DNA from: Candidatus Vogelbacteria bacterium
Lineage (GTDB): Bacteria > Patescibacteriota > Minisyncoccia > Phycocordibacterales > XYD1-FULL-46-19
DNA: 64,000 nt
Direction: 5' to 3'
Assembly (NCBI GenBank): GCA_903878275.1
Contig: CAIRHC010000007.1
Coordinates: 8,727 to 72,726, forward strand
Shown here one piece after another: positions 6,228-57,399 of the stretch (position 1 is its first letter; every line of letters starts with the position of its first letter). Below the pieces are notes generated by a model that saw only the letters and a program-made list of their open reading frames with translations, searched no databases and had not been told where the DNA came from. A program made the position numbers and the translations under genes.

Positions 6228-6230
6228 AAT

Positions 6231-7670: not shown

Positions 7671-7943
7671 TTATTTTTTACCCCAGCTCTTTTTGTGAGC
7701 GTAGAAGTAGTAGATCATGTCTAAAATACCCATAGTGTTGACTAGGAGTAAAACGACAAACCAAACTTTGGCACCGTTTCTGGCGGCGCGCCATAAGGCG
7801 AGACCTTTCCAGACGATTGTCCAAACTATTATGACCGCTATTAATGTGGCTGCACCTATTACAGCCGCAGCTGCTGAGATGCCCCAGACCATGTCTGGCA
7901 GTTTGTCTGCCATGAAGGCTGGATTATTTATTAATTTATCCAT
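7671..7943 (-). CDS. DUF5652-like small membrane protein
   Basis: WKGLALWRAARN..WFVVLLLVNTMGIL. Confidence 0.82.
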   Translation of the reverse strand: MDKLINNPAFMADKLPDMVWGISAAAAVIGAATLIAVIIVWTIVWKGLALWRAARNGAKVWFVVLLLVNTMGILDMIYYFYAHKKSWGKK

Positions 7944-8011
7944 ATGCCATTTATTATAGCAAAATTTTTTGTAAAAAAATTATTAAAAAGAAATAGCTGT
8001 TGATAACTTTT

Positions 8012-8068
8012 TTTACCTGGTTAAATAAATTTGTTTTACAAATCTAGCTTTGCTATTTAACTGGGTGG
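8012..8068. mobile_element. Non-autonomous derivative of the GIY-YIG element
   Basis: TTTACCTGGTTAAATA...TATTTAACTGGGTGG matches the termini at 45231/45521 and 47311/47602. Confidence 0.65.
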
Positions 8069-21643: not shown

Positions 21644-21696
21644 TCGAAACCCCGCCAATTGTGGCGGGGTTTCTCGGAGCCTTACGGCACTTTATA
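21644..21696 (-). ncRNA. Putative small RNA convergent on mazF
   Basis: Minus-strand TTGACT-16-TATTCT at 21729-21702; GCC-GTAA-GGC, TCCGA, GAAACCCCGCC hairpin. Confidence 0.6.
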
Positions 21697-23767: not shown

Positions 23768-26700
23768 ATGTCAAAATATCAAAAACTTATCCCAACCCTA
23801 AAAATGCTTCTCTTGGTCGTGGCCTTGCTGGCTAGTAGTACGGTGGCTCTGGCTGACTACTCTGCACCGACAGACTCGCCACCAACCTGTAATCCAAATA
23901 CTCCGGGCTGTTTGGTTCCGATAAATGTTGGGACAAGTTCGGCAAGCTCACAAGAAAAGAAGGGATTGTTGAGTCTTGGTGTTTTGAGTTTGATAAGTGG
24001 TTACGTTGATACAACACTGGAAGCTGCAAAAAATATGGTCGCAACGATTGTTTCTGATACCACCTCTTTGAATATTTTTGGTAGAGGCACTTTTCCTAAT
24101 CGAGTAACAAAGGTTTGGGACAACCTTTGGGTTACTGGCACTGCCTCTTCGACAAATGTCGTAACCACAAATCTCTATGCAACAAGCACGTACGCCACTC
24201 ACTATTATTGTGCCGATGGTGGTACAACTTGTGGAATAGGTGGTACCGCTGGCGTAAAAACAATAACTGGTAATACTGGTATTACCGCATCCTCTCCTGA
24301 TTCGTCTGGTAATGTCAATTTGACAAACACTGGAATCGTCGGAATAGAACCTGGTAATGGTATCGAAGTCTCCTCAAAAGATTCTAACGGTAAAGTGACC
24401 ATAACAAACAAAAATCCGAATGCTGGTGTTTCTCAAATAACTAGCACGGGTGGTACGGTGAAAATTACCCCAACCGATGGTGGGGGGAAAGGGATTGTTA
24501 ATCTTGAGGTTGATCCTACTAAAATCGTTACCGGAGTTTCTGGCTTAAAGAAAAGTGGTAGCATAACCTTGACTGGAACTGAAACTGACGGTGTGTACAC
24601 TGGCGAAGTCACGATCGGAGGCGGAGGTCCCGGCGAATCTGTCTGGGTTCCAAACTATAATGATCCTGATCAACAGGGGCATATTGGTGTTAATTATCCG
24701 GCAGGTGCTGTCGGCATCGGTGAACATAGCCCAAATCACCAACTAGAGTTGGGAACCAATTTTACTGGTTCCACAGCTGCGCAGGACGAGTTGTTCGGCG
24801 ATATGATGGCCTCTTTTCTCGTGCTTAATTATTTTGAGACCAACCCGATAAGTAGTGTTGCTTCGAGCCGTGTAATAAATGCTCTCTATTCTGTCAAAAG
24901 AGCTGGTACAGATGGAAATACTCCACCATATAAACAAACTGATCTATATTTTAACGAAAACAAAGTTGCCACGAATGAAAATATAAATAATATCATTCAG
25001 GAATGTATCAATGCTGGCAGTTGTTCAAGTTTTGGCGACAATCTATGGTCAGTTTCAACCGACGCCAACGGTAAAAAGACAATGGCTCCGAACGGTAATC
25101 CCGATATTATAAGTCTCGGCACTGTAAATACTGGTGAATTAGGTGCTACCGACATTAAAACTATCGGCGGTGGCTTAGGCAATATTACCGCTGGACGTTA
25201 TGTTTATGCCAATCAAGGACTTTACCTTGGAAAACCGGATCCGAGTGTGCTTGGACAAAGCTCTGTCAGTCAGCTTATTGGTGATGAAAGGATTCTAAAG
25301 TGGGAAGATAGTCCGGTTTTGACTTTAAAAAACTATGCTGATTATATTACCAATTTGGGCGATAACTCTTGGATTGTTGGAGATGGTACTATTTCTCTAA
25401 AAACTCCAGCAAATAAAGTTAACATCGACTCAAAAGACATCACTATCGGTAAAATGACAGCTGACAACGTTTCCGATGGCACAGTCACTGTTCTTAGCAA
25501 TCTTGTAACAAAGAATATAGACACACCTAATGATATTACTGCTGGGAACATCAATGCTGTTTACGATGTTAAAGCAAACAGAGTTATAACTGGCCAAGAT
25601 CTTCAACTTGGTCTCGCCAACTCGATCATCCGTCAACAAAAAATTGGTGACACTGACGCTTCAGCTTTGACATTCTTAACTGGCGGACAAGCTGCCGCCA
25701 ACATTTATTCTGGCGGTCTATCTGTCGCCACTCAATACACCGCGGCGTCAATTCCTCCAAACAAAGGTGCTTATATCGAAGGTTCTGTCGGCATCGGCAC
25801 ACAGCCAGCTACCGATATGAAACTCGACGTTGTTGGTAATATCAAAGCCTCGGATAAAGTATTAGCTTCAAATCTATGTACCGTAGATGGGGCAAATTGT
25901 AAATCAACCGGAGATATTATAAACAATTTCGGCGGCACCAACGTCTGGGAGACTTCTTCTTATCCTAATGCTGTAACTGGTCCAAACATCCAAGCTGAAT
26001 ATTCTGATGCTCGAGCTGGAAATACTGGTGTTGTCGCGAAGAATATGAACGCTCTGGGTTCTTCGGGCTTTGGAGCTATTAAGGACTATGATCCCACCAA
26101 GCAGGCACCAGGAGCGCCTTATGTCGGAGATCCTTTCCGAGATTCGATCCGCTTTATGGCTTATGGAAGTAGTATTAGCGAGGGTTTGGATTCGATAAAA
26201 AAGAGCGGTGCGGAAATAATGTCTGGTGTAAATATGACCGGCGGTTTGTCTATTACTGCTGGTGCGCCTGCCGGTGATATTCGTTTCTATGCCGGCGGAC
26301 GTAAAGCTGAAAACAGGATAATGACTCTGACGAAGGCTAATGGTAAACAATATATTCAGGCTCCTTCTGCGACCTTGGGAGTAAAGGATATTACAGCAGA
26401 CTCTGTCGGCATCGGCACAGCTGCTCCCCGTGGCAGTCTAGACATCAACAAAGGTTCAGCAATGTGGTCCAGCTACAACTATGGCAAACAGCTTGTTCTT
26501 GATGCTGGTACCGGACAAAACACCGGTATGGCAATTGTCGGAGACGATGCAAAAAGCAAAAACTGGGGAATTACCGCTGGCTCTGACGGTGAGAGCTTGA
26601 CCATAAGTGCAATGCCTAAATTAGACGATTTTAGTACACCACCCGATGGTTTTATGAGTTTTAATAGAGCAACCGGTGTCTCTTTCAACAAAAATGTCGG

Positions 26701-29700
26701 TGTTAATGGGAATATTCAAGGCATTGGTGTCTTGGCTGATAATGTCACAGCAAATTCTGTACAACTAGCCGGCAATGGGGGTGGCGACGGTCTTACCTCC
26801 GATTCCAATAATAAACTTCTCTGGAATAATACTCCGGTTGGAGGCAATAATACTTTTATTGGTGGTGATAGCTCCTGGGCTTCGACTACTGATTTCTTAT
26901 ATCCAAATAGTGATCAATTCAGTAAAAACGTCGGCATCGGCACCCAATCTCCGTCCGAAAAACTAGAAGTTGCTGGAAATATTAAAGCCACTGGGAATAT
27001 CAGTGCTCAAGAAGGTTATTTCAATAAACTAGCCACATTTGGTGCCGGAGCTGTTACTTTTGGAAAACATGTTGTTAGTAGTATCTTGCAAGTCAACGGT
27101 GGTGTCGATCTGGCTGTTCACACAGGCAACGTCGGCATCGGGTTGCCTAAGATTATGCAGGCTGGAGACTCTCCCGGTAACCCCTCCGCTCCTGGCATAC
27201 CAACCGCTAAGTTAGATGTCGGCGGGGATATCAAGTCAAATTCTCTGATTTTAAATTCAAAAAATAGCGCTACTGACAACAGTGGAGCTCTTGAGGTTGT
27301 AAGGATTGGTGGAGTGCCAACTGTCCCACCTTCAGACGCAGTGACGGTTTCCAGTTGTCAGTCCTGGAGGAATGGTTACCCCACAAACTTTTTTACCGCT
27401 TACGATGATGTACAAGGTTGTAATGCCGCTGTTGATGCTGGCGATTTGGTTTTCCCTCATGAGATCATTCCTGCCTCTGGCGGGACTCCAGCTTCGGGCG
27501 GATCGGTCAGTCTCTATTTCGACGGCAAACCAGTCGGCGACAATGCGTGGACCAAAAACGGTAACGATATCACCAACAGTAATACTGGCAATGTTAATAT
27601 AAATTCAAATAACATAACGATCGGACGAATGAAAAGTGATGGCTATACCCCCGACGGTACAACACTCATCTTGAGTAATCTCGAAACAAAAAATCTTTTT
27701 TCCTATGGAGGTATTTCAAACCTAGGCAATATTACTACTCAAGGCAACGTCGGTATCGTCAATAATATCACTGGATATGTTCCCCGTGGCAGTCTAGACA
27801 TCAACAAAGGTTCAGCAATGTGGTCTGGCTCCAACTACGGCAAACAACTTGTTCTAGATGCTGGTGTCGGACAAAACACCGGTATGGCAATCGTCGGAGA
27901 TAATGGGGCTGGCAAAAACTGGGGAATTACTACCACTGGTAGTGGTGACAACCTGGTTATAAGTGCAATGCCTGGCTTGGAATATAGCGATACTGGTCAT
28001 CAACCTGATAATTTTATGAATTTTAGTAGAACAACCGGTGTATCCTTCAACAAAAATGTCAGTATCACTGGCAATGTAAATGCCAGCGGAAATATCACCG
28101 GAAACGATGTCGCCGCAAATACTCTGAATGTCCCGACAATCACGACGACCAACCTTATCGCTTCTGGTTCAGTCATCTCTCCTGTTGTCGCCTTAACTAA
28201 TAATTCTGCCAACCCCGTGTATAAAAGTCTCACTATGGACAATAGTGGAAAGCTGTTGTTTGGCGGCAAACCAGTCGGCGATAACAATTGGACAAAAGAT
28301 GCCCGGGAAAATATTAGTAACAGTAATACTGGCCTAGTCTCTGTCGGTCCAGTTAAAGATTATCTTTCGAGTTCGAACATTAAATTTGCTGTTAATGGTG
28401 GTAGTATGGTGGTAAGTGATGATCTGTATGTTGGTAGTGGAGGTTCTGACCCGAAGGGTGAGCTTATTTTGCAAGGGAAGAAGGGGATTCAGTTTTTAAA
28501 TTCGCTCGAAATTAGTGATACTGCCGCGCCTAATTCTTTGTACACAAAAAACTCCGGGTCGGACCTATACTACAATGGCCTACAGATAAATACCCCACCG
28601 TCTTGGAATCCAAGTGGCAATAATATCTCATATGCTGATACCGGCAACGTCGGCATCGGCACCAATGCTCCGCTTGGAAAATTAGATATTACTGGTGGAG
28701 CATCTTCTATCCCCCCTTCTTCAGGAGTTGCCCCGGCGACATCGCTTGCTCTTCGTTTGCACGACAACTCTAATGTCGTTTTAGATTTTGGTCTGAACAA
28801 CAGTAACGGTTCGTGGTTGCAAACAGCCAACAAAACAGACTTGAATGCAAACTATCCATTATCATTAAATCCAAACGGTGGAGGCGTCATTATTGGAAAA
28901 AACCCAATAAATGGTACCATCACTGCTGGATTGACATTGGATGTAGCCGGAGCCATAAAAGGTACCGATGTTTTTGCAACTCACTTGAATGTTGCTAATA
29001 ATGATTTTAATCCACTCGAACCAGCTATCAAGGCTGCTTCATATGTCTCTGGTCGATATGGTGGAGGATATGTTATGCGGGATAATACTAATAATTATGC
29101 GGGTATGTGGACAGACAACAACGGAAATACATTGAAGTTGTCCGCTGGCGGGTCGGCAGATAGTGGTAAATTGAATACGACCAACATAATGTCCTTAAAC
29201 TACAATGGAGATGTTGATGCGACAAATTTCTGTATAACCAGAGGTACCAAACGGAAATGTCTTTCTGACCTATTATTCACAAATTCTTCAATAAAGTTGG
29301 ATTCTCTTGGTGTAGATAAGAATACTGTTTCTTTTAAGATATCTTGGGGAAAGGTAGTCGTCTCGGATACTGTTAACTGGCGAGTTGCATACAAAGACAA
29401 CACCGGGGTGGAGAAAGAAAAATACAACATACCAATCACTGAGGCTGCCGGTGAGTACTCTGGAAGTTTTGAAGTTACTGGTGCGACCGGTAACTTTGTG
29501 TTGACAGCGTCTCTTGTTTCAGGTGGGGGTATTGATGATAGTGTTTTTGCACAATTTTATATTACCCCACCACCAACACCTAGTGTTAACATTGTGTATG
29601 CTGCCTCTGAAAAATGCCCTGCACCTATTACAGATCCAAATTGTTTCTTGCCTAAGTTTCGGTTTGACTACGCAAACATTCCTGATCACTATAAAGCGAT

Positions 29701-30898
29701 TGTCAACACTACTGGTCAATGGTTGTTTCCTGCGCCAAAACCAGGCGAGGGTGCAACTCACGGACCAGTCACCGGGGAAGGGATAGACGTTGTTGGCACC
29801 AACGTATTCAATAATGATGGTTTATCTCAACCTACTTACAGTGGCGTAGGTACGAAAGAGATGACGGTTCAAATAGTATCAGAATATGACATGGAAAATG
29901 TTCTCGTGAGTGACACGGTGCAATACAATTCTGACGGTACGATAAATGTCGATAAAGGAAGAATGGTATTTGAAGCTAACGGTATCCCGAAACAAGATGC
30001 TAACGGAAATGTGACTTGGGGCGTAGGTCTCTTTAATGACGGTGATTTTGACTGGAGTAGTGGTTACAAAATTGTTTGGTCTGAAAGCCGCAATCCTACT
30101 CTTTGGTACACTTTGGCCACTCTTGACAATCTATCTCTTACAAAAGGTGCTTCGGCGAGCTTGTATGACTACAGTGCTGGTCAAAGTACTTTCAATCCAT
30201 ACACCTCCCAGGGTCTCGTTGGTGGTCTTAGTTATGACATGAGTTTTAAAATTGTGAACGGTTCTGGGGTGGCAGTGTCACCTGTCGTGAGAGAGAACGT
30301 GACTATTTTAAAGAAAGATGGCGCTTGCGGTCCTAGTAATACTGCTTCAGGAGTTGTGCCAAATCACGTGTATTCAGTAGCTGGCTATAATAATGAAATT
30401 CGAGCAGATTCTGATTCCTGTTCAGTCGGTACTGTGGCGAGCACATTTACTCTCAATCCTGGTGGTGAACCTGGTTGGACTTGTGGCGGCTCTGGTAGTG
30501 GAACAATCAACCCGTCTCCTGACTGTAAGGGTTACTTTGCTCCGACTGCAAAGAGAGCCCCAACATATACTGTCCCATGGAGGCATACTAATAATGGCTA
30601 TTATGTAAATGTATATGATAATCAACAAATCGACCATGTAAATACTGCCACAGGGGGAGGGCTACCTTGTGTAATACGAGCATTATCAGAATTAGGGAGT
30701 GATCAGATATCTTGGATTGCTGCTAGACTTAACGCCTATGGTGCGAATAGCGGCGGGGCGCTAGAGTTAAAAATAGCTGAACCGGCATACGGGATGAGCA
30801 AGGTAACACTGGCATGGCTGTGTATGGGTGTGGACGAGAACTGGTATGAGGTTCCTAATGCTGGGCAGGTTTATAACCCTCCATTGACCACAGATTAG
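23768..30898 (+). CDS. Giant secreted surface/fibre-like protein (2376 aa)
   Basis: Signal peptide, APT..PP..PINVG N-terminal motif, repeated (GN)VGIG modules, internal ~90-aa duplication, C-terminal DGACG..WTCGG Cys motif. Confidence 0.88.
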   Translation: MSKYQKLIPTLKMLLLVVALLASSTVALADYSAPTDSPPTCNPNTPGCLVPINVGTSSASSQEKKGLLSLGVLSLISGYVDTTLEAAKNMVATIVSDTTSLNIFGRGTFPNRVTKVWDNLWVTGTASSTNVVTTNLYATSTYATHYYCADGGTTCGIGGTAGVKTITGNTGITASSPDSSGNVNLTNTGIVGIEPGNGIEVSSKDSNGKVTITNKNPNAGVSQITSTGGTVKITPTDGGGKGIVNLEVDPTKIVTGVSGLKKSGSITLTGTETDGVYTGEVTIGGGGPGESVWVPNYNDPDQQGHIGVNYPAGAVGIGEHSPNHQLELGTNFTGSTAAQDELFGDMMASFLVLNYFETNPISSVASSRVINALYSVKRAGTDGNTPPYKQTDLYFNENKVATNENINNIIQECINAGSCSSFGDNLWSVSTDANGKKTMAPNGNPDIISLGTVNTGELGATDIKTIGGGLGNITAGRYVYANQGLYLGKPDPSVLGQSSVSQLIGDERILKWEDSPVLTLKNYADYITNLGDNSWIVGDGTISLKTPANKVNIDSKDITIGKMTADNVSDGTVTVLSNLVTKNIDTPNDITAGNINAVYDVKANRVITGQDLQLGLANSIIRQQKIGDTDASALTFLTGGQAAANIYSGGLSVATQYTAASIPPNKGAYIEGSVGIGTQPATDMKLDVVGNIKASDKVLASNLCTVDGANCKSTGDIINNFGGTNVWETSSYPNAVTGPNIQAEYSDARAGNTGVVAKNMNALGSSGFGAIKDYDPTKQAPGAPYVGDPFRDSIRFMAYGSSISEGLDSIKKSGAEIMSGVNMTGGLSITAGAPAGDIRFYAGGRKAENRIMTLTKANGKQYIQAPSATLGVKDITADSVGIGTAAPRGSLDINKGSAMWSSYNYGKQLVLDAGTGQNTGMAIVGDDAKSKNWGITAGSDGESLTISAMPKLDDFSTPPDGFMSFNRATGVSFNKNVGVNGNIQGIGVLADNVTANSVQLAGNGGGDGLTSDSNNKLLWNNTPVGGNNTFIGGDSSWASTTDFLYPNSDQFSKNVGIGTQSPSEKLEVAGNIKATGNISAQEGYFNKLATFGAGAVTFGKHVVSSILQVNGGVDLAVHTGNVGIGLPKIMQAGDSPGNPSAPGIPTAKLDVGGDIKSNSLILNSKNSATDNSGALEVVRIGGVPTVPPSDAVTVSSCQSWRNGYPTNFFTAYDDVQGCNAAVDAGDLVFPHEIIPASGGTPASGGSVSLYFDGKPVGDNAWTKNGNDITNSNTGNVNINSNNITIGRMKSDGYTPDGTTLILSNLETKNLFSYGGISNLGNITTQGNVGIVNNITGYVPRGSLDINKGSAMWSGSNYGKQLVLDAGVGQNTGMAIVGDNGAGKNWGITTTGSGDNLVISAMPGLEYSDTGHQPDNFMNFSRTTGVSFNKNVSITGNVNASGNITGNDVAANTLNVPTITTTNLIASGSVISPVVALTNNSANPVYKSLTMDNSGKLLFGGKPVGDNNWTKDARENISNSNTGLVSVGPVKDYLSSSNIKFAVNGGSMVVSDDLYVGSGGSDPKGELILQGKKGIQFLNSLEISDTAAPNSLYTKNSGSDLYYNGLQINTPPSWNPSGNNISYADTGNVGIGTNAPLGKLDITGGASSIPPSSGVAPATSLALRLHDNSNVVLDFGLNNSNGSWLQTANKTDLNANYPLSLNPNGGGVIIGKNPINGTITAGLTLDVAGAIKGTDVFATHLNVANNDFNPLEPAIKAASYVSGRYGGGYVMRDNTNNYAGMWTDNNGNTLKLSAGGSADSGKLNTTNIMSLNYNGDVDATNFCITRGTKRKCLSDLLFTNSSIKLDSLGVDKNTVSFKISWGKVVVSDTVNWRVAYKDNTGVEKEKYNIPITEAAGEYSGSFEVTGATGNFVLTASLVSGGGIDDSVFAQFYITPPPTPSVNIVYAASEKCPAPITDPNCFLPKFRFDYANIPDHYKAIVNTTGQWLFPAPKPGEGATHGPVTGEGIDVVGTNVFNNDGLSQPTYSGVGTKEMTVQIVSEYDMENVLVSDTVQYNSDGTINVDKGRMVFEANGIPKQDANGNVTWGVGLFNDGDFDWSSGYKIVWSESRNPTLWYTLATLDNLSLTKGASASLYDYSAGQSTFNPYTSQGLVGGLSYDMSFKIVNGSGVAVSPVVRENVTILKKDGACGPSNTASGVVPNHVYSVAGYNNEIRADSDSCSVGTVASTFTLNPGGEPGWTCGGSGSGTINPSPDCKGYFAPTAKRAPTYTVPWRHTNNGYYVNVYDNQQIDHVNTATGGGLPCVIRALSELGSDQISWIAARLNAYGANSGGALELKIAEPAYGMSKVTLAWLCMGVDENWYEVPNAGQVYNPPLTTD

Positions 30899-30935
30899 TA
30901 GCCGGAGGAGGCGAAGCCTTCGCTCTGGGTGCCAC

Positions 30936-31005
30936 AATAGGGGGAGGTCGAACCTCACCTCAAGGTGCCAAATAGGGGGAGGTCGAACCTCACCTCAAGG
31001 TGCCA
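30936..31005 (+). repeat. 35-bp tandem repeat x2 containing the GAGGTCGAACCTC palindrome
   Basis: AATAGGGGGAGGTCGAACCTCACCTCAAGGTGCCA twice; core recurs at ~31728 and ~32865. Confidence 0.88.
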
Positions 31006-31035
31006 AATGTGTTGTAATATAATTTGTTAACGAGG

Positions 31036-31203
31036 CGGGAAAAATGTGTTGTAATTTGCTGACGATAGGATAATTAAAAAAGAAAAAACCACCCCAGGAA
31101 TTTCGCCTAGCAAAATTCCTGGGGTGGTTTAGTTTTCCGGTTTTTGTTTTTTCTCTTTTTTTTACAAAAGACTTCGTTTGGAAATAATGTTTGTGATATA
31201 ATC
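31036..31203 (+). repeat. Cassette-boundary repeat, copy 1
   Basis: AAATGTGTTGTAATTT..GAAAAAACCACCCCAGGAATTT..AAATTCCTGGGGTGGTTT followed by a promoter-like block. Confidence 0.85.
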
Positions 31204-31211
31204 TTCTCAAG

Positions 31212-31601
31212 ATGATAAAAAGATTTTTGGAGTGGCTGGAGTTAAAAGTAAAACTTAATGATTTAGAAAGCGAGCCACCAATCGTTCATGAAAGAGAGCT
31301 TTGGTGGATTAGTTTTGGTGAAAATATTGGTTCGGAAATTGACGGGAAAAGTCAATTGTTTTCTCGTCCCGGTTTAATTCTCAAGAAACTATCCCGTAGT
31401 TTCTATCTTGTTGCTCCGACGACATCTCAAATAAAAACCGGTTCTTGGTATTCAACGATAAAACACAAGGGTAAAGAGATGTCTGTTTGTTTACATCAGG
31501 TCAGAACGGTTGATTGTCGACGTTTATCTAGCTTAATGGGGCAAGTTGACGAAAAAGATTTTACCGTAATCAAAGAGTCATTTTTCAAATTATATCGGTA
31601 A
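31212..31601 (+). CDS. PemK/MazF family toxin with no protein antitoxin
   Basis: ELWWISFGENIGSEIDGK..FSRPGLILKK..APTTS..QVRTVD. Confidence 0.85.
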   Translation: MIKRFLEWLELKVKLNDLESEPPIVHERELWWISFGENIGSEIDGKSQLFSRPGLILKKLSRSFYLVAPTTSQIKTGSWYSTIKHKGKEMSVCLHQVRTVDCRRLSSLMGQVDEKDFTVIKESFFKLYR

Positions 31602-31620
31602 AGTTACTTGAAAAAAATAT

Positions 31621-31665
31621 TCCTCACCTTTTTATGGGTGAGGCCGTGGCTAAATGCCGAATGTA
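31621..31665 (-). ncRNA. Putative small RNA convergent on mazF
   Basis: Minus-strand TTGACT-16-TATACT at 31698-31671; GGC-ATTTA-GCC then CCTCACC/GGTGAGG hairpin. Confidence 0.55.
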
Positions 31666-31745
31666 TTTTTAGTATAGACCTTATTTAAAAAAAGTCAAAT
31701 TTTACTGTTTTAACTCCTCCGAAAGTCGAGGTCGAACCTCATATT

Positions 31746-31837
31746 CGGGAAAAATGTGTTGTAATTTGTCGATGGTAGGCTAATCAAAAAAGAAAAAACC
31801 ACCCAAGGAATTTCGCTAGACGAAATTCCTTGGGTGG
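31746..31837 (+). repeat. Cassette-boundary repeat, copy 2
   Basis: Same motif with a compensatory C-G to A-T change (CCACCCAAGG/CCTTGGGTGG). Confidence 0.85.
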
Positions 31838-31920
31838 AGTTGTTTTTTGGTCAGTTTTATCAACTTTATAAACTTACAGTATTTTGACAAACTTTATAAA
31901 GTTTGCTAATATCAGTTTTA

Positions 31921-32844
31921 ATGACGATTAAAGAAAAATTACAAATTATCAAACAAACTACCGGTTTAACTCAAACCAAACTGGCAGAGCGCTTAGGCGT
32001 GTCTTTTGTCACCTTTAATAGTTGGTGGACGGGGAAAACCTTGCCTCGTTTGAAAAAGCAGGTTCTTATTGGCGAGTTGTTTCTAACCTTAACTGGTCAG
32101 AAAATTATCCCGACCGAACAACTGCTCGCGAAGAAGCAAGCTCTACAAAAAAAATCAGCTGAACACAAGAGTGTTATTTCTGAAATATTAAATAATCCAG
32201 ATCTTCGAGATAGTTTCCTGTTAAAACTTACTTACAATAGTAATAAAATTGAAGGGAGCACTTTGTCTGAATCAGAGACTGCCGCGATTCTTTTTGATAA
32301 CACCGCTTTACCAGACAAAAGTTTAATCGAACAATTAGAAGCCAAAAATCACCAGACTGCTCTTAATTATCTTTTTGATTATATCGCAAAAAATGATGAG
32401 TTGACTGAAAAATTGGTGTTAAAACTTCACAGTATTTTAATGAATGGCATTCGTGATGATGCTGGGGTTTATCGTAACCATGGCGTCAGAATTCTTGGGG
32501 TTGATTTGCCGACCGCTAATTATTTGAAAGTCCCCGAATTGATTCCCGGTATAATTAGGAGGGCGAATAGTAAATCTAAAGATGTCGTGGCTTTGTCGGC
32601 AGAAATTCATAGTCGGTTTGAACAAATCCACCCTTTTTCTGACGGTAACGGTCGGATCGGACGGATTTTGATGACCGCGATGTTGCTTCGGGCAAACATG
32701 GCGCCAGCGATAGTTAAACAGGAAGACAAACAGTTTTATTATGCTTGTCTTTATGGGGCTCAAGTCAAAGAAAACTATAACCAGTTAGAAGATTTTTTGT
32801 GTGATGCCATAACAAACGGTTTTAAAGTCTTGGAGCGAGATTAA
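31921..32844 (+). CDS. Fic family protein with N-terminal XRE-type HTH
   Basis: GLTQTKLAERLGVS; SNKIEGS; HPFSDGNGRIGR; palindrome CAAACTTTATAAAGTTTG in the promoter spacer. Confidence 0.92.
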   Translation: MTIKEKLQIIKQTTGLTQTKLAERLGVSFVTFNSWWTGKTLPRLKKQVLIGELFLTLTGQKIIPTEQLLAKKQALQKKSAEHKSVISEILNNPDLRDSFLLKLTYNSNKIEGSTLSESETAAILFDNTALPDKSLIEQLEAKNHQTALNYLFDYIAKNDELTEKLVLKLHSILMNGIRDDAGVYRNHGVRILGVDLPTANYLKVPELIPGIIRRANSKSKDVVALSAEIHSRFEQIHPFSDGNGRIGRILMTAMLLRANMAPAIVKQEDKQFYYACLYGAQVKENYNQLEDFLCDAITNGFKVLERD

Positions 32845-32890
32845 ACCGAAAGTCGCCGAAAGTCGAGGTCGAACCTCACCTCAAGGTGCC

Positions 32891-33055
32891 AAATGTGTTG
32901 TAATTTCCTGACGGTAGGATAATCAAAAACGAAAAAACCACCCCAGGAATTTCGCTTAGCGAAATTCCTGGGGTGGTTTTAGTCCTCTGGTTTTTATAAT
33001 ATTTTTTCTTTTTTTACAGGAGACTTCGTTTGGAAATAATGTTTGTGCTATAATC
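32891..33055 (+). repeat. Cassette-boundary repeat, copy 3
   Basis: Same hairpin plus GACTTCGTTTGGAAATAATGTTTGTG.TATAATC block shared with copy 1. Confidence 0.85.
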
Positions 33056-33061
33056 AGAAAA

Positions 33062-33241
33062 ATGAAGAAAGAAAATAACTATGCCTTTATTGATAGTCAG
33101 AATTTGAATTTGGCAATTAGATATTTAGGGTGGGAATTGGATTTTGCTAAGTTTCGAATTTATCTAAAAGATTGTTTTGGCGTAGATAAAGCCTATCTTT
33201 TTATCGGTTTTGTAAACGACAATCAACCGCTTTATACTTAA
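33062..33241 (+). pseudogene. Truncated NYN ribonuclease (internal deletion)
   Basis: MKKENNYAFIDSQNL..KFRIYLKD..AYLFIG matches the N-terminus of 12953..13477; stops after 59 aa. Confidence 0.85.
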
Positions 33242-33297
33242 GAAAAAGAGGCATAACCTAGGGACGAAACCCTTCGGGCAGCCTCTTTATCGTGATA
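33241..33297 (-). ncRNA. Putative NYN-associated small RNA, copy 2
   Basis: Minus-strand TTGACA-16-TATTAT at 33330-33303; same fold as the 13461 copy. Confidence 0.6.
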
Positions 33298-33349
33298 GTT
33301 TAATAATAGCAAATATGGCTGATGTGTCAACGTAAGCTTAGTTAAAACA

Positions 33350-33398
33350 TCGAAACCCCACATTGCTGTGGGGTTTCTCGGAGGCCGAAGCCATAATA
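33350..33398 (-). ncRNA. Orphan MazF-type small RNA
   Basis: GGC-TTCG-GCC, TCCGAGAAACCCC hairpin, homologous to the 21644 copy; TTGCTT-16-TATTAT promoter; no mazF ORF beside it. Confidence 0.6.
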
Positions 33399-33509
33399 CT
33401 TATTATAATATACCACTTATTTTTTTAAGCAAGGGCGGGGGCGGTTTAGTTTCCGGTTTTTCTGATCTTTTCTAGCCACATTTCTTGTTTTATGCTAAAA
33501 TTACAGTAT

Positions 33510-33920
33510 ATGGTTATCGATGTGGAAAAAAGAGATGAAATCATTGAATACTGGCGGGAAGGAGCGGGAGAAGCGCTTGAAAACGCTGAATATTTAATGG
33601 AGAAGAAAAGTTTTTCCTATGCTTTATTTTTTGCTCATTTAGCGACAGAAAAAATTCTTAAATCTCTGGTGATTAAGAAAACCAACGACCATGCTCCTCG
33701 GACTCATGATTTACTCTATTTGGTCGGGTTGTCGGGGGTTGATTTATCAAAAAGCCAAGAGAATCTGTTGTTAGAAATTGGTAAATTCAATATTGAAGGT
33801 CGTTATCCAGAAGAAAAACAAGAAGCTTCAAAAAAAATTAACCAAGCAATGGTAGAAAATTATCTAATTAAAATTAAAGAATTATATTTATGGTTATCGT
33901 CGGAGCAGAAAGAAAAATAA
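33510..33920 (+). CDS. HEPN domain protein
   Basis: ALFFAHLATEKILKS..RTHDLLYL..IEGRYP. Confidence 0.88.
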   Translation: MVIDVEKRDEIIEYWREGAGEALENAEYLMEKKSFSYALFFAHLATEKILKSLVIKKTNDHAPRTHDLLYLVGLSGVDLSKSQENLLLEIGKFNIEGRYPEEKQEASKKINQAMVENYLIKIKELYLWLSSEQKEK

Positions 33921-34231
33921 TTAGTAGCGAGGAAATTAAAAAAATCCTGGCTCTTTTTAAAGAAAAGTTGGTGGCAGAAAAAGTGCCTTTTGCGAGCATT
34001 TATCTTTTTGGTTCTTATGCGACAGGCGAGGCTGACCGTGATAGTGATATTGATATTGCGGTGGTGATTTCGCCAAAGGCGAAAATTGACGAGGAGCTCG
34101 TTGACCATTGGCGTTGGTTAGCTAAAGAGATAAATGTTAAGACTGAAGTGCATATTATCAAAACTGAAGATTTTGATAATCGCTATCTATCTTTACCCGC
34201 TTATATTAAAAAAGACGGGATTGTTGTTTAG
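33890..34231 (+). CDS. Minimal nucleotidyltransferase (MNT), HEPN-MNT pair
   Basis: YLFGSYATG..SDIDIAV. Confidence 0.88.
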   Translation: MVIVGAERKIISSEEIKKILALFKEKLVAEKVPFASIYLFGSYATGEADRDSDIDIAVVISPKAKIDEELVDHWRWLAKEINVKTEVHIIKTEDFDNRYLSLPAYIKKDGIVV

Positions 34232-34232
34232 G

Positions 34233-34340
34233 GTAATATAATTTGCTGACGAGAAAATAATCAAAAACGAAAAAACCACCCCAGGAATTTCGCTTAGCGA
34301 AATTCCTGGGGTGGTTTTAGATTTCTGGTTTTTCTGATTT
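34233..34340 (+). repeat. Cassette-boundary repeat, copy 4
   Basis: AATTTGCTGACG..TAATCAAAAACGAAAAAACCACCCCAGGAATTTCGCTTAGCGAAATTCCTGGGGTGGTTTT. Confidence 0.85.
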
Positions 34341-34386
34341 TTTTCTTTCTCTTTTTCTGTTGTTCTGTTAAAATTAAATAAGTTTT

Positions 34387-36141
34387 ATGCCTATCGAAGT
34401 TGGACCACTAAAAAAGTTTTTACTTGATGCTCGCTTGATTTCCAAAAGTGATTTGGAAATTGCCGAGCAGGAATCGATCGAGAAAAAAACTCGACTCGAG
34501 GATGTTTTATTGAACAAGGGGCTTTTATCGGAAGACGATATTCGTCAGGTCAAAGCTTATGTTGGCGGTATTCCGTTTGTCGATTTAAAAAACCAAAAAA
34601 TTCCGAAAGATATTTTGTTTATCGTGCCCGAACCACTCGCTCGCAAGCACAACATAATTGCCTACAACAAGACACCGGCTGGTTTGGAGGTGGCGATGCT
34701 TGATCCGCTTGATCTCGAGCACATTGATTTCATCCGCAAAAGTTCTGGTCTGAAAATTTTACCTCGTCTGACCGACACCGAATCAATCAAAAAAACTTTA
34801 CTGCTCTATCAAAAAAGTTTGAAAGCCGAGTTTGGCGATATTATCCAAAAGGAAACTCTGGCGATTAAAAATTTGGCCAACACTAAAAGTGGTGAAGAAG
34901 TGAGTGCAGTTGAGTTACAAAAGCTTGCTGAAGATTTACCGGTTATTCGCATCGTCGATACGGTTTTGTCGCACGCCATTATGCAAAAAGCGTCGGATAT
35001 TCATATCGAGCCATTTGAAAAAGAAGTTTTGATTCGTTATCGGCTTGACGGCGTGCTTTACGACGCAATGGTCTTACCGAAAGAGACGGCTTCCGGCTTG
35101 GTCGCACGCATAAAAGTGCTGACCAATCTTCGTCTCGATGAAAAAAGATTGCCACAAGACGGGCGTTTCAAAATTCAAAACAAGGATCAGAATGTATCTT
35201 TTCGTGTTTCGACTTTGCCGACCAGCTTTGGTGAAAAGATTGTAATGCGTCTTTTGCCTGATGCGACCAGCGATCTGACGCTCGAGAGTATGGGTTTTCA
35301 CGGGACTGATTTGGAAAAAATCCAGGAAGCGCTCAAACAAACGACCGGGATGGTCTTGGTCACTGGTCCGACCGGTTCGGGAAAATCGACCACAGTTTAT
35401 ACGATTTTAAATATTTTAAATACGCCAGGGGTTAATATTTCCACTATTGAAGATCCGATCGAATATCAGATGCCGAGGATTAACCAAACTCAAGTCAAAC
35501 CAGAAATTGGTCTAACCTTTGCTGGCGGTTTGCGTGCCCTCGTCCGCCAAGATCCAGATATTATTATGGTTGGGGAAATTCGCGATCGTGAGACGGCGGG
35601 GCTGGCTATCAATGCCGCTTTGACTGGCCACTTGGTTTTATCGACCTTGCACACCAATTCGGCGGCGGGCACTTTGCCTCGTTTGCTTGATATGGGTGTC
35701 GAGCCATTTTTGGTGACCTCGACCATTAAAATTGTCATTGCTCAAAGACTGGTTCGACGCTTGACCGACGAAAAAGAAGAATACAAATTGACCGAAGCGG
35801 AACTGGCGGACATTGGCAAACACGCTGATTTGACGGCGGTGCTTGCTTTGCTAAAAAAAGAAAGAATTTTAAAAATGACCGACACTTGGCAAGATGTTAG
35901 TTTTTATCGACCGAAAGCTGGCGTTGATGAAAAAGAAGCCTATACTGGTCGGATTTGTATTACGGAAATTTTAACAATGAATCGGGCGTTGCGCGATTTG
36001 ATTACCGAAAACAAAACCGCCGACGAGCTAGAAGAGTTTGCCAAAAAAGCCGGAATGATCTCGATGCTCGAAGATGGTATTTTTAAAGCGGCACAAGGTA
36101 TTACGTCCATTGAAGAAGTTTTTCGAGCGGTAAGTGAATAA
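34387..36141 (+). CDS. pilB: Type IV pilus / T2SS assembly ATPase (PilB/GspE)
   Basis: ASDIHIEP, RLPQDGRF, GPTGSGKST, RQDPDIIMVGEIRD, TGHLVLSTLHTN. Confidence 0.95.
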   Translation: MPIEVGPLKKFLLDARLISKSDLEIAEQESIEKKTRLEDVLLNKGLLSEDDIRQVKAYVGGIPFVDLKNQKIPKDILFIVPEPLARKHNIIAYNKTPAGLEVAMLDPLDLEHIDFIRKSSGLKILPRLTDTESIKKTLLLYQKSLKAEFGDIIQKETLAIKNLANTKSGEEVSAVELQKLAEDLPVIRIVDTVLSHAIMQKASDIHIEPFEKEVLIRYRLDGVLYDAMVLPKETASGLVARIKVLTNLRLDEKRLPQDGRFKIQNKDQNVSFRVSTLPTSFGEKIVMRLLPDATSDLTLESMGFHGTDLEKIQEALKQTTGMVLVTGPTGSGKSTTVYTILNILNTPGVNISTIEDPIEYQMPRINQTQVKPEIGLTFAGGLRALVRQDPDIIMVGEIRDRETAGLAINAALTGHLVLSTLHTNSAAGTLPRLLDMGVEPFLVTSTIKIVIAQRLVRRLTDEKEEYKLTEAELADIGKHADLTAVLALLKKERILKMTDTWQDVSFYRPKAGVDEKEAYTGRICITEILTMNRALRDLITENKTADELEEFAKKAGMISMLEDGIFKAAQGITSIEEVFRAVSE

Positions 36142-45229: not shown

Positions 45230-45230
45230 A

Positions 45231-45521
45231 TTTACCCGGTTAAATAAGATTTGATACGACGCTTGATAAACATTCGACCGTGGTATGTTTTAAAATATTT
45301 TTCTCGGTGGGTAGCATCATCTCTATTTAAACATGATTCATAGTAGACAAGCAATAGGGGACGGCGATCTTTTGTAGATTCGACTAACCCTCGACAGTGT
45401 TTATCAAATCTTAATTTTAAATCTTTGGTGTAACCAGTGTAGAAATTGTGATCTTTTTGAGATAGTAAAATATAAGTATAAAACATTGATATTTAGATTT
45501 AAAATTATTTAACTGGGTAAA
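45231..45521 (-). mobile_element. Inverted-repeat-flanked GIY-YIG element, copy 1
   Basis: Termini TTTACCC(A/G)GTTAAATA / TATTTAAC(C/T)GGGTAAA. Confidence 0.7.
45232..45486 (-). CDS. GIY-YIG nuclease family protein
   Basis: YTYIL..FYTGYT.DL..R..H..STK..P..LVYYE..A..RE.Y.K. Confidence 0.9.
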   Translation of the reverse strand: MFYTYILLSQKDHNFYTGYTKDLKLRFDKHCRGLVESTKDRRPLLLVYYESCLNRDDATHREKYFKTYHGRMFIKRRIKSYLTG

Positions 45522-45557: not shown

Positions 45558-47327
45558 ATGTCAATAAAAAAATGGGCGTTAAAAAAGCCAATTAGTAAGA
45601 AAATTGCGGAAAATTTAAAAAATTACCCAGAATTAACGCAAAAATTACTCTTTTATCGGGGGATTAAAACAATTGAAGAAGCGGAAATTTATCTTAATCC
45701 AAATTTTGAGCGAGATGTGCTCGATCCATTTTTATTTGCCGATATGGACAAAGCGGTGGATCGTATTATCGAAGCGATTCATAAAAAAGAAAAAATAATT
45801 ATTTTTGGTGATTATGATGCAGATGGCGTGCCGGGGGCGGCGATTTTGGCATCGTTTTTTGAACGGATTGGGTATTCTGATTTTGATGTTTATATTCCCG
45901 ATCGTCACCTTGAAGCCTATGGTTTGAGCGAAAAAAGTGTCAAACAATTTATTGCGGATAAAATTGATTTGGTGATTACTGTCGATTGTGGGGTGACCAA
46001 TAACGAAGACATTGCTTTGGCGAAAGAAAATGGTTTGGATGTGATTGTGACTGATCACCATCTGACAGGCGAGACTTTGCCAGATGCTGTGGCGATTGTT
46101 GATGCGAAAAGAATCGATGACAAATATCCGTTTAAATCTTTGGCAGGTTCTGGCGTCGCTTTTAAGTTGGTCTGTGCGATTTTGACTCGAGATCGTTTTA
46201 ATGTGCCGGTCGGCTGGGAGAAGTGGCTTCTTGATTTGGTGGCGATTGCGACGGTGTCGGATATGGTGCCCTTGGTTGGCGAGAATCGCGTGCTGACTTA
46301 TTTTGGTCTGAAAGTGCTTCGACAGACGAGGCGACTTGGAATGATTGCTTTACTTCACGAATTGAAAATTAAACCAGAAAATGTAATGGAAGATGATATT
46401 GGTTTCATGATTGGACCGCGGCTAAATTCGGCGGGGCGAATGTCTCACGCCTCGCAAGCTTATTTTTTACTGCAAACAAAAGACGGTATTGAAGCGGTGA
46501 CGATCGCTAAGCATTTGGAAGAAAAAAATAAAGAGCGGAAAGATTCAGTGGATGTCATTTTGCGAGGAGCGGAAGAAAAATTGTTGGGTAAAAATTTGCC
46601 ACCGGTTATTGTGGTCGGGAGTGTCGATTGGAGCTTGGGAGTTTTAGGTTTGACCAGTAGTCGTTTGGTGGAAAAATATAATCGCCCAGTTTTTTTGTGG
46701 GGTAAAAATGGTAACGGCGAAATAAAAGGTTCTTGTCGGTCTGATGGTACGGTTAATTTGGTTGAATTGATGAAAGAAGCCGGCGGGGAAGATTATTTTA
46801 TAAATTTTGGTGGGCACATCATGGCGGGTGGTTTTTCGATTACCGAAGATAAAGTTGGTGAGTTGGCAGAGAGAATAAATAAGGCGTATGAAAAAATAGA
46901 GAAAAAAGACGTAGCCGTGTCTATCGAGGTTGATGAGCAATTAAGTTTGGACGAGGTGACCTGGGATAATTATTATCAAGTGGAAAAACTAGGACCATTT
47001 GGAATAGAAAATACGAAACCGGTTTTTTTGCTGGCGGGGGTTGATATTTTTTCAGCCAAAACTTTTGGTAATGGCGGAATTCATTTGGAATTGGCTTTTA
47101 AGAACAGTAAAGGCAAAGTCATTCCGGCAATTGGTTTTTTTGTTTGCCCGCCAAGTTTGGTTGGCGAAAATTTTGATGGTCAAAATGGGCATCATTTTCC
47201 CGAAGTTAATCTGACCGCTGGTCAGAAAGTAGATATTTTAGTGAATTTGGAAAAATCAACATTTAAGAATTTCCCCGAACTCCGGATGAGGATTGTCGAC
47301 ATTAAAAAAGTTCACCCAGTTAAATAA
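45558..47327 (+). CDS. recJ: ssDNA exonuclease RecJ
   Basis: GDYDADG, TVDCG, TDHH, GPRLNSAGR, GSCRS, GGH. Confidence 0.95.
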   Translation: MSIKKWALKKPISKKIAENLKNYPELTQKLLFYRGIKTIEEAEIYLNPNFERDVLDPFLFADMDKAVDRIIEAIHKKEKIIIFGDYDADGVPGAAILASFFERIGYSDFDVYIPDRHLEAYGLSEKSVKQFIADKIDLVITVDCGVTNNEDIALAKENGLDVIVTDHHLTGETLPDAVAIVDAKRIDDKYPFKSLAGSGVAFKLVCAILTRDRFNVPVGWEKWLLDLVAIATVSDMVPLVGENRVLTYFGLKVLRQTRRLGMIALLHELKIKPENVMEDDIGFMIGPRLNSAGRMSHASQAYFLLQTKDGIEAVTIAKHLEEKNKERKDSVDVILRGAEEKLLGKNLPPVIVVGSVDWSLGVLGLTSSRLVEKYNRPVFLWGKNGNGEIKGSCRSDGTVNLVELMKEAGGEDYFINFGGHIMAGGFSITEDKVGELAERINKAYEKIEKKDVAVSIEVDEQLSLDEVTWDNYYQVEKLGPFGIENTKPVFLLAGVDIFSAKTFGNGGIHLELAFKNSKGKVIPAIGFFVCPPSLVGENFDGQNGHHFPEVNLTAGQKVDILVNLEKSTFKNFPELRMRIVDIKKVHPVK

Positions 47328-47602
47328 TTTTAAATCTAAATGACAATGTTCTATACCTACGTTCTATTATCAAAGAAAGATAACCAATTCTATACTGGTT
47401 ACACCAAAGATTTAAAATTAAGATTTGATAAGCACAATAAAGGTTTAGTAGAATCCACAAAAAAATCTTCGTCCACTATTGCTTGTGTACTATGAGTCGT
47501 GCTTAAATAGAGATGATGCTACTCATCGTGAGAAGTATTTAAAGACATATCACGGTCGAATGTTTATCAAACGTCGTATCAAATCTTATTTAACCGGGTA
47601 AA
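47311..47602 (+). mobile_element. Inverted-repeat-flanked GIY-YIG element, copy 2; nuclease 47346-47601 frameshifted
   Basis: Closely similar to copy 1; one extra A in the A7 run at 47459-47465. Confidence 0.8.
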
Positions 47603-48048
47603 TGGAAAAAATTTATTTAAATACTGATGGCGGGTCACGAGGTAATCCCGGTCCGGCGGGAGCGGGAGCTTTTATTTATAATGAAAAAGGGGAGATGGTG
47701 CGTAAGGCGCACTTGTTTCTCGGGGTGATGACCAACAACGAAGCGGAGTATCAGGCGGTGATTCTTGGTTTGGAGACTTTGAAAAAAGTTTTTGGCAAAG
47801 AAAAAATAAAAGATTTGGACGTGACCATCAGGTTGGATAGCGAACTGGTTTGTCGGCAACTAAAAAACGAATATCAAATTAAAGAAGAAAAACTAATTCC
47901 ACTTTTTATTAAAGTCCACAATTTGCAAGTGTCAGAATTTAAACATTTAAATTTTGAGGCGATTCCGCGTGAGAAAAATTTTGAAGCGGATAAACTGGCG
48001 AACGAAGCGATGGATTTGGGTAGTAGTCAGCCGGCCGGTCTCTTTTAA
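47602..48048 (+). CDS. rnhA: Ribonuclease HI family
   Basis: TDGGSRGNPG, TNNEAEY, DSELV, ADKLAN. Confidence 0.93.
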   Translation: MEKIYLNTDGGSRGNPGPAGAGAFIYNEKGEMVRKAHLFLGVMTNNEAEYQAVILGLETLKKVFGKEKIKDLDVTIRLDSELVCRQLKNEYQIKEEKLIPLFIKVHNLQVSEFKHLNFEAIPREKNFEADKLANEAMDLGSSQPAGLF

Positions 48049-48052
48049 AAAA

Positions 48053-49585
48053 ATGTTGGAGAAAATAAGAAAAACCGCTACGTTTTTAATTGGCGGTTTT
48101 TTCTTGGGTGTCTTTCTGCAATCTTTAATTGACTTTGGCTGGTCATTTTTTTATTTGGCGATTTTGTTGGCGTTGGCTTTTTTATTTTTATTTTTAATTT
48201 TTAAAAAATCTGGTTATTTAATTTTGGCTATTATTTTTTGTGGGTTAGCTCTTGGTGGTGGGCGATTGGAAATGACCAATCCGCAGATCGAGAAAATTCC
48301 GGTTGGTCAAACTTTTATTTTAAAAGCGAAAATAATTGAAGAACCGGATGAGCGGGAAGCTAAAACGCGATTGATTGTCTCGGAAAATAAAACTGGGACA
48401 AAAATTTTAATTAGCACCGAACGTTTTCCGAAATATAATCTTGGCGATGAAATAAAAGTGACCGGCAAATTAGCTAAGCCGGCGAATTTTTTAACGACCA
48501 TTGGTAAAGAATTTGATTATCAAAATTATTTGGCGACAAGTGAAATTTATTATCAAATGTTTAGTCCGCAAATTGAGCTTTTAAAAACGGGAGGAGTATC
48601 TTTAACTGGTCTATTGATTGGCATAAAAAATAATTTCTTAACCGCTTTGGCAAAAGTTTTGCCGGAACCACAAAATTCTTTGATGGGCGGTTTGGTTTTG
48701 GGTTTGAAATCGGGCTTGGGTACGGAAATAGAAAATAATTTTCGTCGTACCGGCTTGTCACATATGATTGTGTTGTCTGGTTACAATATTACTATCATTT
48801 CGGCGGGAATAATGAGCGCGTTGTTTTTCTTGCCGAGAATTATTTCTTTTGGTGGGGGAATTATCGGGATTATTTTATTTATTTTAATGGTCGGCAGTGG
48901 TGCCTCGGCGGTGCGAGCGGCGACGATGGCGATATTGGCGCTTTTAGCTCGTGGTTATGGTCGGCTGTACGATGCGGGACTCGCTTTAATCATCGCCGGT
49001 TTTTTTATGGTCGTTTGGAATCCGCGGTTGCTGGTTTTTGATTTTGGTTTTCAGTTGTCGTTTTTGGCGACGCTCGGTATTATTTTTTTAGCTCCAGTGA
49101 TTGAAGATTTTTTATGTTTTCTCCCCCAAGTTTGGACACGTTTGGGTTCACCAAATATTAATATCGTTAATTTGAAACCGAAAAATAAAATGGAAAAAGG
49201 TTTCCGCGAACTAGTCGCGACTACACTTGGCGCGCAAATTATGGTGTTTCCGTGGATTTTGTACAAAATGGGAAACTTGTCGATTGTCGGTTTATTGGCG
49301 AATATCATTGTTTTGCCGATTGTGCCGATCGCAATGTTTTTTGGATTTATTACTGGTGCCCTTGGTATTATTTCAACAACAGTTTCAATGCCTTTTGCTT
49401 ACATTTCCCATTTTTTACTTAGTTATATTTTGTTTGCGGCAGAAAAATTTGCCCAAATTCCGTTCGCCTCTTTGGAGCTTAAAAATTTTCCGTTAGTATT
49501 GGTTCTCTTAGTCTATATTTTAATTTTGGTCTTTTTGCTAAAATACCAAGCAAATGTGGCCAAGAATCAGATGGATAATAATTAG
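48053..49585 (+). CDS. comEC: ComEC/Rec2 competence membrane protein
   Basis: TGLSHMIVLSGYN, SAVRA, GFQLSFLAT. Confidence 0.92.
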   Translation: MLEKIRKTATFLIGGFFLGVFLQSLIDFGWSFFYLAILLALAFLFLFLIFKKSGYLILAIIFCGLALGGGRLEMTNPQIEKIPVGQTFILKAKIIEEPDEREAKTRLIVSENKTGTKILISTERFPKYNLGDEIKVTGKLAKPANFLTTIGKEFDYQNYLATSEIYYQMFSPQIELLKTGGVSLTGLLIGIKNNFLTALAKVLPEPQNSLMGGLVLGLKSGLGTEIENNFRRTGLSHMIVLSGYNITIISAGIMSALFFLPRIISFGGGIIGIILFILMVGSGASAVRAATMAILALLARGYGRLYDAGLALIIAGFFMVVWNPRLLVFDFGFQLSFLATLGIIFLAPVIEDFLCFLPQVWTRLGSPNINIVNLKPKNKMEKGFRELVATTLGAQIMVFPWILYKMGNLSIVGLLANIIVLPIVPIAMFFGFITGALGIISTTVSMPFAYISHFLLSYILFAAEKFAQIPFASLELKNFPLVLVLLVYILILVFLLKYQANVAKNQMDNN

Positions 49586-57350: not shown

Positions 57351-57377
57351 AGCGTTATTATACCACATAAATCTTAT

Positions 57378-57399
57378 TATCAAACACCGGGTGTTGATA
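57378..57399. repeat. REP-like palindrome, copy 3
   Basis: TATCAAACACCGGGTGTTGATA. Confidence 0.8.

Follow-up and report, generated by a model that had tools for sequence, protein, structure and literature searches.

In the 64,000-nucleotide stretch of a Candidatus Vogelbacteria contig analysed here (the window, to which all coordinates without a prefix refer), the DNA directly upstream of pilB, the gene for a type IV pilus ATPase, is occupied by a repeat-delimited array of toxin-antitoxin (TA) and defence-type modules. The array is real, and its four modules were probably stacked by serial insertion with long target duplication, a process that is likely to have been anchored by homology and likely to have run without a dedicated integrase. 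The source genome is that of an ultra-small member of the candidate phyla radiation (CPR), with 769 kb in 11 contigs and 100% completeness by markers. C-prefixed coordinates (C2, C3, C7 and so on) refer to its contigs, L numbers to loci of relatives, G250 to a relative genome, and X2 to X4 to lake runs.

The array lies between the end of the gene for a giant secreted surface protein of 2376 amino acids (23768-30898, + strand) and the start of pilB (34387-36141, +; PF00437 and MshEN), and in family relatives a comparable large gene likewise stands directly 5' of a hairpin and pilB. The insert of 3.4 kb contains TA-type genes only and no mobility gene, as judged from open reading frames (ORFs) and Pfam. 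Between the repeat copies, the following order was found: a PemK/MazF-family toxin gene with no protein antitoxin (31212-31601, +; PF02452, 6e-9) and a candidate small RNA (sRNA) with its own convergent promoter (31605-31698, -); an HTH-Fic gene with its own promoter and an operator-like palindrome (31860-32844, +, ATG at 31921; PF02661, 6e-19; PADLOC PDC-S04, 3.5e-42); a truncated NYN-family gene (33062-33241, +) and a candidate NYN-associated sRNA (33245-33330, -); an orphan mazF-type candidate sRNA stretch whose toxin gene is missing (33350-33432, -); and a HEPN gene (33510-33920, +; PF05168, 5e-17) with a minimal nucleotidyltransferase (MNT) gene (33890-34231, +; PF01909 (NTP_transf_2), 1e-12; PDC-S09). 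The truncated ORF of 59 amino acids has no Pfam match alone and is 56% identical to the first 59 residues of the NYN gene at 12953. These results agree with the cassette identities given in a first-pass annotation of the same DNA.

The separators between the modules are copies of a unit of 77-200 bp, four of them full and one partial. Ahead of them, a cluster of two tandem 35-bp copies of a repetitive extragenic palindrome (REP) with the terminal tail TGTGTTGTAATATAAT follows the surface-protein gene (30899-31023, +). Copy 1 (31036-31203, +) comprises a tail, a terminator-like hairpin (31086-31130), a T-rich stretch and a promoter in common with copy 3. Copy 2 (31719-31848, +) comprises REP, tail and hairpin, with its left end closer to copy 3 and its middle closer to copy 1, and copy 3 (32856-33055, +), with REP, tail, hairpin and the shared promoter, is 88% identical to copy 1 over 165 nt. 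Copy 4 (34233-34386, +) is the resident terminator and promoter region of pilB, adjoins the ATG at 34387 and has a 64-nt identity run with copy 3, while the partial copy (33438-33503, +) holds the right hairpin arm and a pilB-type promoter stretch, 75% identical to copy 4 (34308-34376) over 69 nt. The full copies were recovered by repeat search as family D1 (at 31042, 31752, 32891 and 34229); they align over 72-165 nt at 83-90% identity, are 73-90% alike overall with 62-72 identical letters in a core block of 77 nt, and are mosaics of each other. Their hairpins fold with z-scores of -7.8 to -11.3 (0 of 200 shuffles equally good), and copy 2 carries a compensatory change from C-G to A-T. The four hairpin repeats, the partial copy near 33440, the compensatory change and the identity of the last copy with the pilB upstream region had all been described in the first-pass annotation and were reproduced, as was the motif GAGGTCGAACCTC ahead of three copies, found upstream of copy 1 (twice, at 30944 and 30979), copy 2 and copy 3. 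Its description of every unit as starting with AAATGTGTT does not hold for copy 4, which lacks this start and begins inside the REP tail.

The unit is a composite of local host DNA, namely a REP module, a terminator hairpin and a promoter. Its left part consists of AGGTYSRACCT with TGTGTYRTAAT about 17 nt further on (REP and tail), and its middle is a near-perfect hairpin belonging to a genome-wide family of 24 palindromes. At the corresponding position, ahead of pilB and behind the surface-protein gene, a terminator-like hairpin was also found in L031, L032, L033, L038, L040, L041, L043, L044 and L045 (among the loci read by eye) and in L091. On the right, the unit consists of promoter DNA of two kinds, one common to copies 1 and 3 up to its -10 box and the other common to copy 4 and the partial copy. 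The copies stop exactly where a promoter or -10 box belonging to the module itself starts. A separate promoter comes with the Fic module, with an upstream motif also present in the relatives L234, L236 and L238. The repeat copies are predicted to supply terminators and, for mazF and NYN, a promoter as well.

A comparison with relatives indicates that the site can be without modules and that the pattern of duplication extends beyond this genome. No modules occupy the pilB slot of L091, whose pilB is the closest relative (78%), or that of family genomes, and the hairpin found there is in each case an unrelated one. A flank test for direct repeats of at least 35 nt and at least 78% identity, with one copy at most 500 nt upstream and one at most 900 nt downstream, was applied to order-level relatives of the cargo genes and to HIT, RNase H, ClpP, trigger factor and NusA genes as controls, after 8 TA and 29 control loci with short flanks or no match had been dropped. 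Such repeats were found around 12 of 98 TA-type genes (mazF 5/64, HEPN 1/2, Fic 1/5, NYN 5/27) and around 0 of 122 housekeeping controls; the Fisher p of 4e-5 is overstated, because the thresholds were set after an earlier looser test, kin and tandem neighbours are not independent and the controls lie more often inside operons, which counts against our interpretation. The looser test had given 7/40 TA against 1/46 control loci (p 0.02); two of its positives were doubtful, and its control match was due to chance. The 12 positive repeats are 36-148 bp long, 83-100% identical and all different in sequence. In L215, 92 nt of the start of a pheS-like gene are duplicated around mazF with different DNA upstream of each copy. 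The duplicated segment is a gene end in L236 and, in L224, the initial 76 nt of a tatD-like gene (gene names being taken from translations).

Comparable arrangements were observed at other loci. L118 (Ga0302320_10004960, 775-8030) contains an independent array directly before pilB, made up of three ATPase genes, of which two were confirmed as AAA_14-DUF4143 (PDC-S01), and two AbiEi/AbiEii pairs. The separators are repeats local to L118, one of them matching the promoter and first codons of its pilB and the other a second stretch, and they are unrelated to the unit described here. In L137, hicBA-like genes are split by a copy of a gene end, and in L047 one MNT gene lies between two related palindromes. 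In the source genome, spaced intergenic direct repeats occur at six loci, five of which touch a TA-type gene: the pilB array, an MNT-HEPN pair (C7:87354-88272), a RelB/RelE-like pair (window 5791-6907), a mazF on C2, where the repeat may be plain paralogy, and a duplicated hicA end on C11. Taken at the level of sequence, this suggests that the footprint of TA genes within local direct repeats is general in the order and that the repeat sequence itself is not.

The same observations bear on whether the repeats preceded the modules. The segment of REP, terminator and promoter could first have been duplicated in tandem locally, with the modules landing later between the repeats or replacing parts of them. 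REP modules do form tandem arrays in the source genome (a triple REP at C7:139815), the slot of relatives is prone to duplication (tandem surface-protein genes, repeated hairpins), and chance insertion between repeats is treated as a separate class in the accessible part of PMC2853133. We nevertheless regard this order of events as unlikely, in view of the exact ends of the copies at a module promoter or -10 box, their mosaic relation to each other, and the single-copy coding sequence duplicated around other TA genes, where no repeat could pre-exist.

Other repeat-rich or variable segments were noted in the same comparison. A second repeat-delimited run lies at C7:86622-91167, where a different hairpin, present four times, stands between two paralogous surface-protein genes and the MNT-HEPN pair. 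At window 5667-6914, the RelB/RelE-like pair and tRNA genes lie among duplicated tRNA-end/palindrome repeats (131 nt, 83%). The near-identical contigs of L109 and L110 differ before pilB, with a Dam-replacing-like nuclease region in one and a DNA methyltransferase in the other (names from translations).

Signs of turnover were found in metagenomes, where the stretch is present in four lake runs of one study; no RNA data set was among those listed as containing it. In run X2, a contig follows copy 1 without difference over 30995-31196 and then continues at 33049 into NYN, so that mazF and HTH-Fic are skipped, and another X2 contig has copy 3 in its window form. Between the promoters of copies 1 and 3, identity extends over 27 nt at most without interruption. 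Since such assemblies use 31-letter words, an assembly chimera is unlikely as the cause of this joint, although it may be a library chimera. Because the copy-1 letter at 31196 is retained, the point of exchange falls within the final 7 letters that both share. In the window itself, the truncated NYN gene, the orphan candidate sRNA and the half hairpin suggest earlier losses. The bin 31209-31509, uncovered in all four runs, was not counted as evidence, since only 20-26 of 30 bins are covered in these runs and 31564-31865 is present in X3.

Two further joints were recorded in these runs. In one X4 contig, the left portion of copy 3 runs up to 32928 and is followed by 13 other REP-like letters and then by the REP cluster from 30970 on, which possibly represents another allele of that cluster. 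One contig each of X3 and X4 departs from the window sequence at 31187 (31 and 24 letters unmatched), possibly a third allele behind copy 1.

Integrons and the related clusters of attC sites lacking integron-integrases (CALINs) are arrays of attC cassettes, and the array resembles them in its ordered small modules rich in TA genes, in its hairpin-forming separators and in its signs of gain, loss and decay. In outcome it works like an integron; it does not belong to the class and is not an integron. As the first-pass annotation had stated for the hairpin ends, no attC cores (RYYYAAC/GTTRRRY) are present in any of the four units on either strand. No IntI was found among the three tyrosine recombinases of the genome, which score 135.6, 61.8 and 106.6 bits against TIGR02249 (cut-off 265). 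The modules have or borrow promoters, and the repeat is not carried elsewhere by the cassettes: copy 3 is unmatched in the relatives of mazF, Fic, HEPN and NYN among 352 loci, and cassette genes occur elsewhere without the unit, as seen in the flanks of these relatives.

Among the genomes searched, the repeat unit is confined to one locus of one genome. As a correction to the first-pass annotation, the two halves of the unit belong to families recurring in the source genome; no full copy of the unit was found elsewhere there. Copy 3 has no match outside the source genome among the 352 loci compared. Against 401 order genomes, unit 1 gave weak matches of 22-53 nt in 12 other genomes, mostly to the T-rich part. 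The hairpin pattern had 0 matches in metagenome contigs, a scan that may omit very near genomes. Its two matches in GTDB contigs and six in viral contigs, from scans with the same possible omission, were discarded as chance because the second arm is absent in all eight.

A dedicated site at the hairpin, where a trans-acting site-specific recombinase shuffles one-site cassettes, is highly improbable. The layout, the TA cargo, the strong conserved hairpin with its compensatory change, the three tyrosine recombinases and the X2 joint at a 7-letter boundary would suit such a platform. They are opposed by the missing attC cores, the low TIGR02249 scores, the near-perfect palindromes, the homologous cassettes that lack the site, the membership of the hairpin core in the family of 24 and the differing lengths and ends of the copies. 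From the integron-like accretion proposed in the first-pass annotation, the gain and loss of cassettes is retained (empty slot of relatives, X2 contig, decayed modules), as is the lack of any integrase tied to the locus. The conserved recombination site is not supported, the unit being confined to this locus while cassette genes elsewhere lack it and other TA genes have their own local repeats. A dif/Xer-type reading was also set aside, the candidate stretch not being kept in copies 2-4.

The left part of the unit can be assigned to the REP of two REP-associated tyrosine transposase (RAYT) genes, C3:19313 and C7:131294, because the array-type REP with its tail brackets both as an inverted pair (C3:19245/20018; C7:131249/132007). 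This REP and tail occur in 10 exact copies in the source genome, of which 3 belong to the array and another 3 are directed towards a hicAB-like pair; the pattern was found in 3 of 301 genomes, source genome included. The left end of the array (30899-31023) resembles the left flank of RAYT C7:131294. The array REPs all lie on one strand in direct order, and no Y1 gene is located within 30899-34386. In G250, array-type REP modules stand at four gene ends, three of them beside terminator-like hairpins, with no TA gene recognised, so that a REP beside a terminator is regarded as ordinary.

These findings allow for RAYT-assisted capture, in which a RAYT owning the AGGTYSRACCT REP (C7:131294 or C3:19313) nicks the REP module and starts insertions or duplications, at a site that may be an emptied REPtron overtaken by TA genes. 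We rate this as rather unlikely. Besides the bracketing of both RAYT genes, the share of exact REP copies in the array and at the hicAB-like pair and the likeness to the C7 flank, the start of copy 4 inside the tail points in this direction, and the consulted part of PMC6006769 describes cleavage and rejoining of REPs by TnpA(REP) and the replacement of E. coli REPtrons by TA operons. However, L118, L137 and the 12 other repeat-bracketed TA genes have repeats of different sequence, which in several cases is coding; the G250 modules stand at gene ends with no recognised TA gene; REPtrons do not appear to move as units, as far as that part of PMC6006769 goes; and the array REPs are direct instead of inverted. 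A stronger form, quite unlikely in our estimation, would make the emptied REPtron a cassette-capture platform, where a HUH nuclease nicks the REP tail before the pilB terminator for serial capture and release of toxin and defence modules; a domesticated Y1 transposase would then do the work that a tyrosine recombinase does in an integron. Relative to the REPtron/RAYT system as excerpted from PMC6006769, the array agrees in that its unit has on the left the palindrome-plus-tail found on both sides of two RAYT genes and also scattered and in tandem; it differs in having no RAYT gene on site and REPs in direct order, and cargo capture is not described in that excerpt, the word 'cargo' being absent from the main text.

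The RAYT-like Y1 HUH gene inside the window (56673-57383, -; PF01797), put forward in the first-pass annotation as a speculative catalyst, was rejected in this role, since a different palindrome stands on both of its flanks and the owners of the array REP are C7:131294 and C3:19313. Five intact-looking RAYT-like genes (C7:65429, which is window 56673, C9:14622, C10:81871, C3:19313 and C7:131294) and one pseudogene (C3:18952) were counted, with four types of flanking palindrome in this 769-kb genome. Three tandem REP modules point at the hicAB-like pair at C7:139815-140490, one REP module stands 5' of a lone antitoxin-like gene of 73 amino acids at C7:100266-100544, and a pilin cluster at C7:129323-134655 contains repeated REP and hairpin segments together with a pair of paralogous genes for small coiled-coil proteins.

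Serial insertion with long target duplication, the reading preferred here, would proceed in the following steps. DNA of related strains would enter through the ComEC/pilus machinery; recA and comEC are present in the genome, with comEC-type DNA uptake genes at 47954-50399 (+; PF03772, DUF4131 and Lactamase_B). Resident terminator-promoter DNA, or a part of it, would serve as the anchor for the arriving module and would be present twice after the event. Module and anchor stretch would integrate by one RecA-type crossover, either as a small circle or with one homologous and one microhomology end. Of these, a circle carrying the module and an anchor piece is favoured, because in the available part of PMC3240628 single crossovers of a circle give duplications of 109-950 bp, while homology-facilitated illegitimate recombination predicts deletion. 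Each insertion would add one copy of the unit, and recombination between copies would remove modules, which are predicted to persist, likely as addiction or anti-phage units.

Long target duplication was described in 2010 (PMC2853133), in the portion at hand, as a class of restriction-modification genes within direct repeats of >30 bp, with inserts of <20 kb and no mobility gene, found mostly in competent species and with the enzyme not established. The array matches that description in that selfish or defence genes lie within >30-bp direct repeats of host target DNA with no mobility gene inside, and in that such repeats are enriched over average genes, the known cases being mostly from naturally competent species. 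It differs in cargo, which is PemK, Fic, NYN and HEPN-MNT, some with candidate sRNAs, against a restriction-modification pair, and for this reason the array is classed as a variant and not as a member. It also differs in that the event was apparently repeated four to five times at one site, that the copies are 73-90% alike and mosaic, that the target holds a REP, and that an empty allele was seen only in distant relatives with unrelated hairpins. Turnover of TA genes at chromosomal spots by way of mobile elements is reported in PMC13617665, the available text of which makes no mention of direct repeats. A literature search limited to main texts and few subscription papers returned no description of TA arrays with duplicated targets in CPR.

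Several observations weigh against serial insertion, in addition to the limits of the flank test given above. No circle was seen, and a clean empty allele with a single unit copy was not seen among the relatives compared, which lie outside the genus. Most TA-type genes in the flank test (86/98) have no such repeat, and a TA-like match (tblastn) was found in only 4 of 91 pilB slots with enough DNA. The X2 joint is one contig of depth 3 from one study, and its exchange lies outside the 27-nt run, so that plain homologous recombination needs heteroduplex extension or a later substitution. A RAYT-owned REP is present in three of the four full copies and is treated here as a passenger. The described cases of long target duplication, too, are without an established enzyme (PMC2853133).

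Despite their small size and their scarcity of mobile elements, CPR genomes hold many scattered TA and defence genes. The array shows a route by which such genes could pile up and turn over without an integrase, where each insertion copies its landing site and so would leave a handle for the next gain or loss. The 12/98 against 0/122 loci suggest that this route is common in the order, and the many junctions make the origin of long target duplications more testable. If RAYT proved to be the trigger, a long-sought host function for domesticated transposases would be at hand.

The candidate sRNA 3' of mazF is a separate lead. Reverse-strand sigma70-like promoters face mazF (31698) and NYN (33330, promoter match 11/12), and the NYN gene at 12953 has a like layout 3'. 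The orphan stretch 33350-33385 is 83% identical over 36 nt to the DNA 3' of the mazF gene at 21248 (21644-21679). In an alignment of mazF loci (the window, L187, L188, L190, L194 and L196), the reverse promoter and a motif are kept in 6/6, the loci having been chosen because the motif was visible. The combination of mazF, candidate sRNA and reverse promoter also occurs in other CPR genomes at unrelated places. In the sequences, this 3' element has the look of a candidate class of RNA antitoxin, conserved beside solitary mazF genes. Its consensus fold gave a 4-pair helix only and is not informative, and of the 25 Rfam matches with E values up to 5, not one reached the gathering score, for the mazF and NYN elements or elsewhere. 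The closest described counterpart is AbiF-AbiFr, a type III-like TA system with a cis-encoded non-coding RNA (PMC12737573, in the part available), which likewise joins a solitary ribonuclease gene to an adjacent conserved non-coding element. The difference is that the toxins here have PemK and NYN folds, that the candidate element lies downstream on the opposite strand and that it has no Rfam match. No vector was found for mazF, as none of its relatives was confirmed in viral contigs and the 15 plasmid matches are distant (<60% identity).

More widely, solitary CPR mazF genes were observed with a hairpin-plus-motif element at their 3' side and a near-consensus convergent promoter, and NYN genes with an analogous element. 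Elsewhere in the window, a recJ-like gene is bracketed by two adjacent inverted repeats (45230-45521 and 47311-47603) of 144-152 nt and 84-88% identity.

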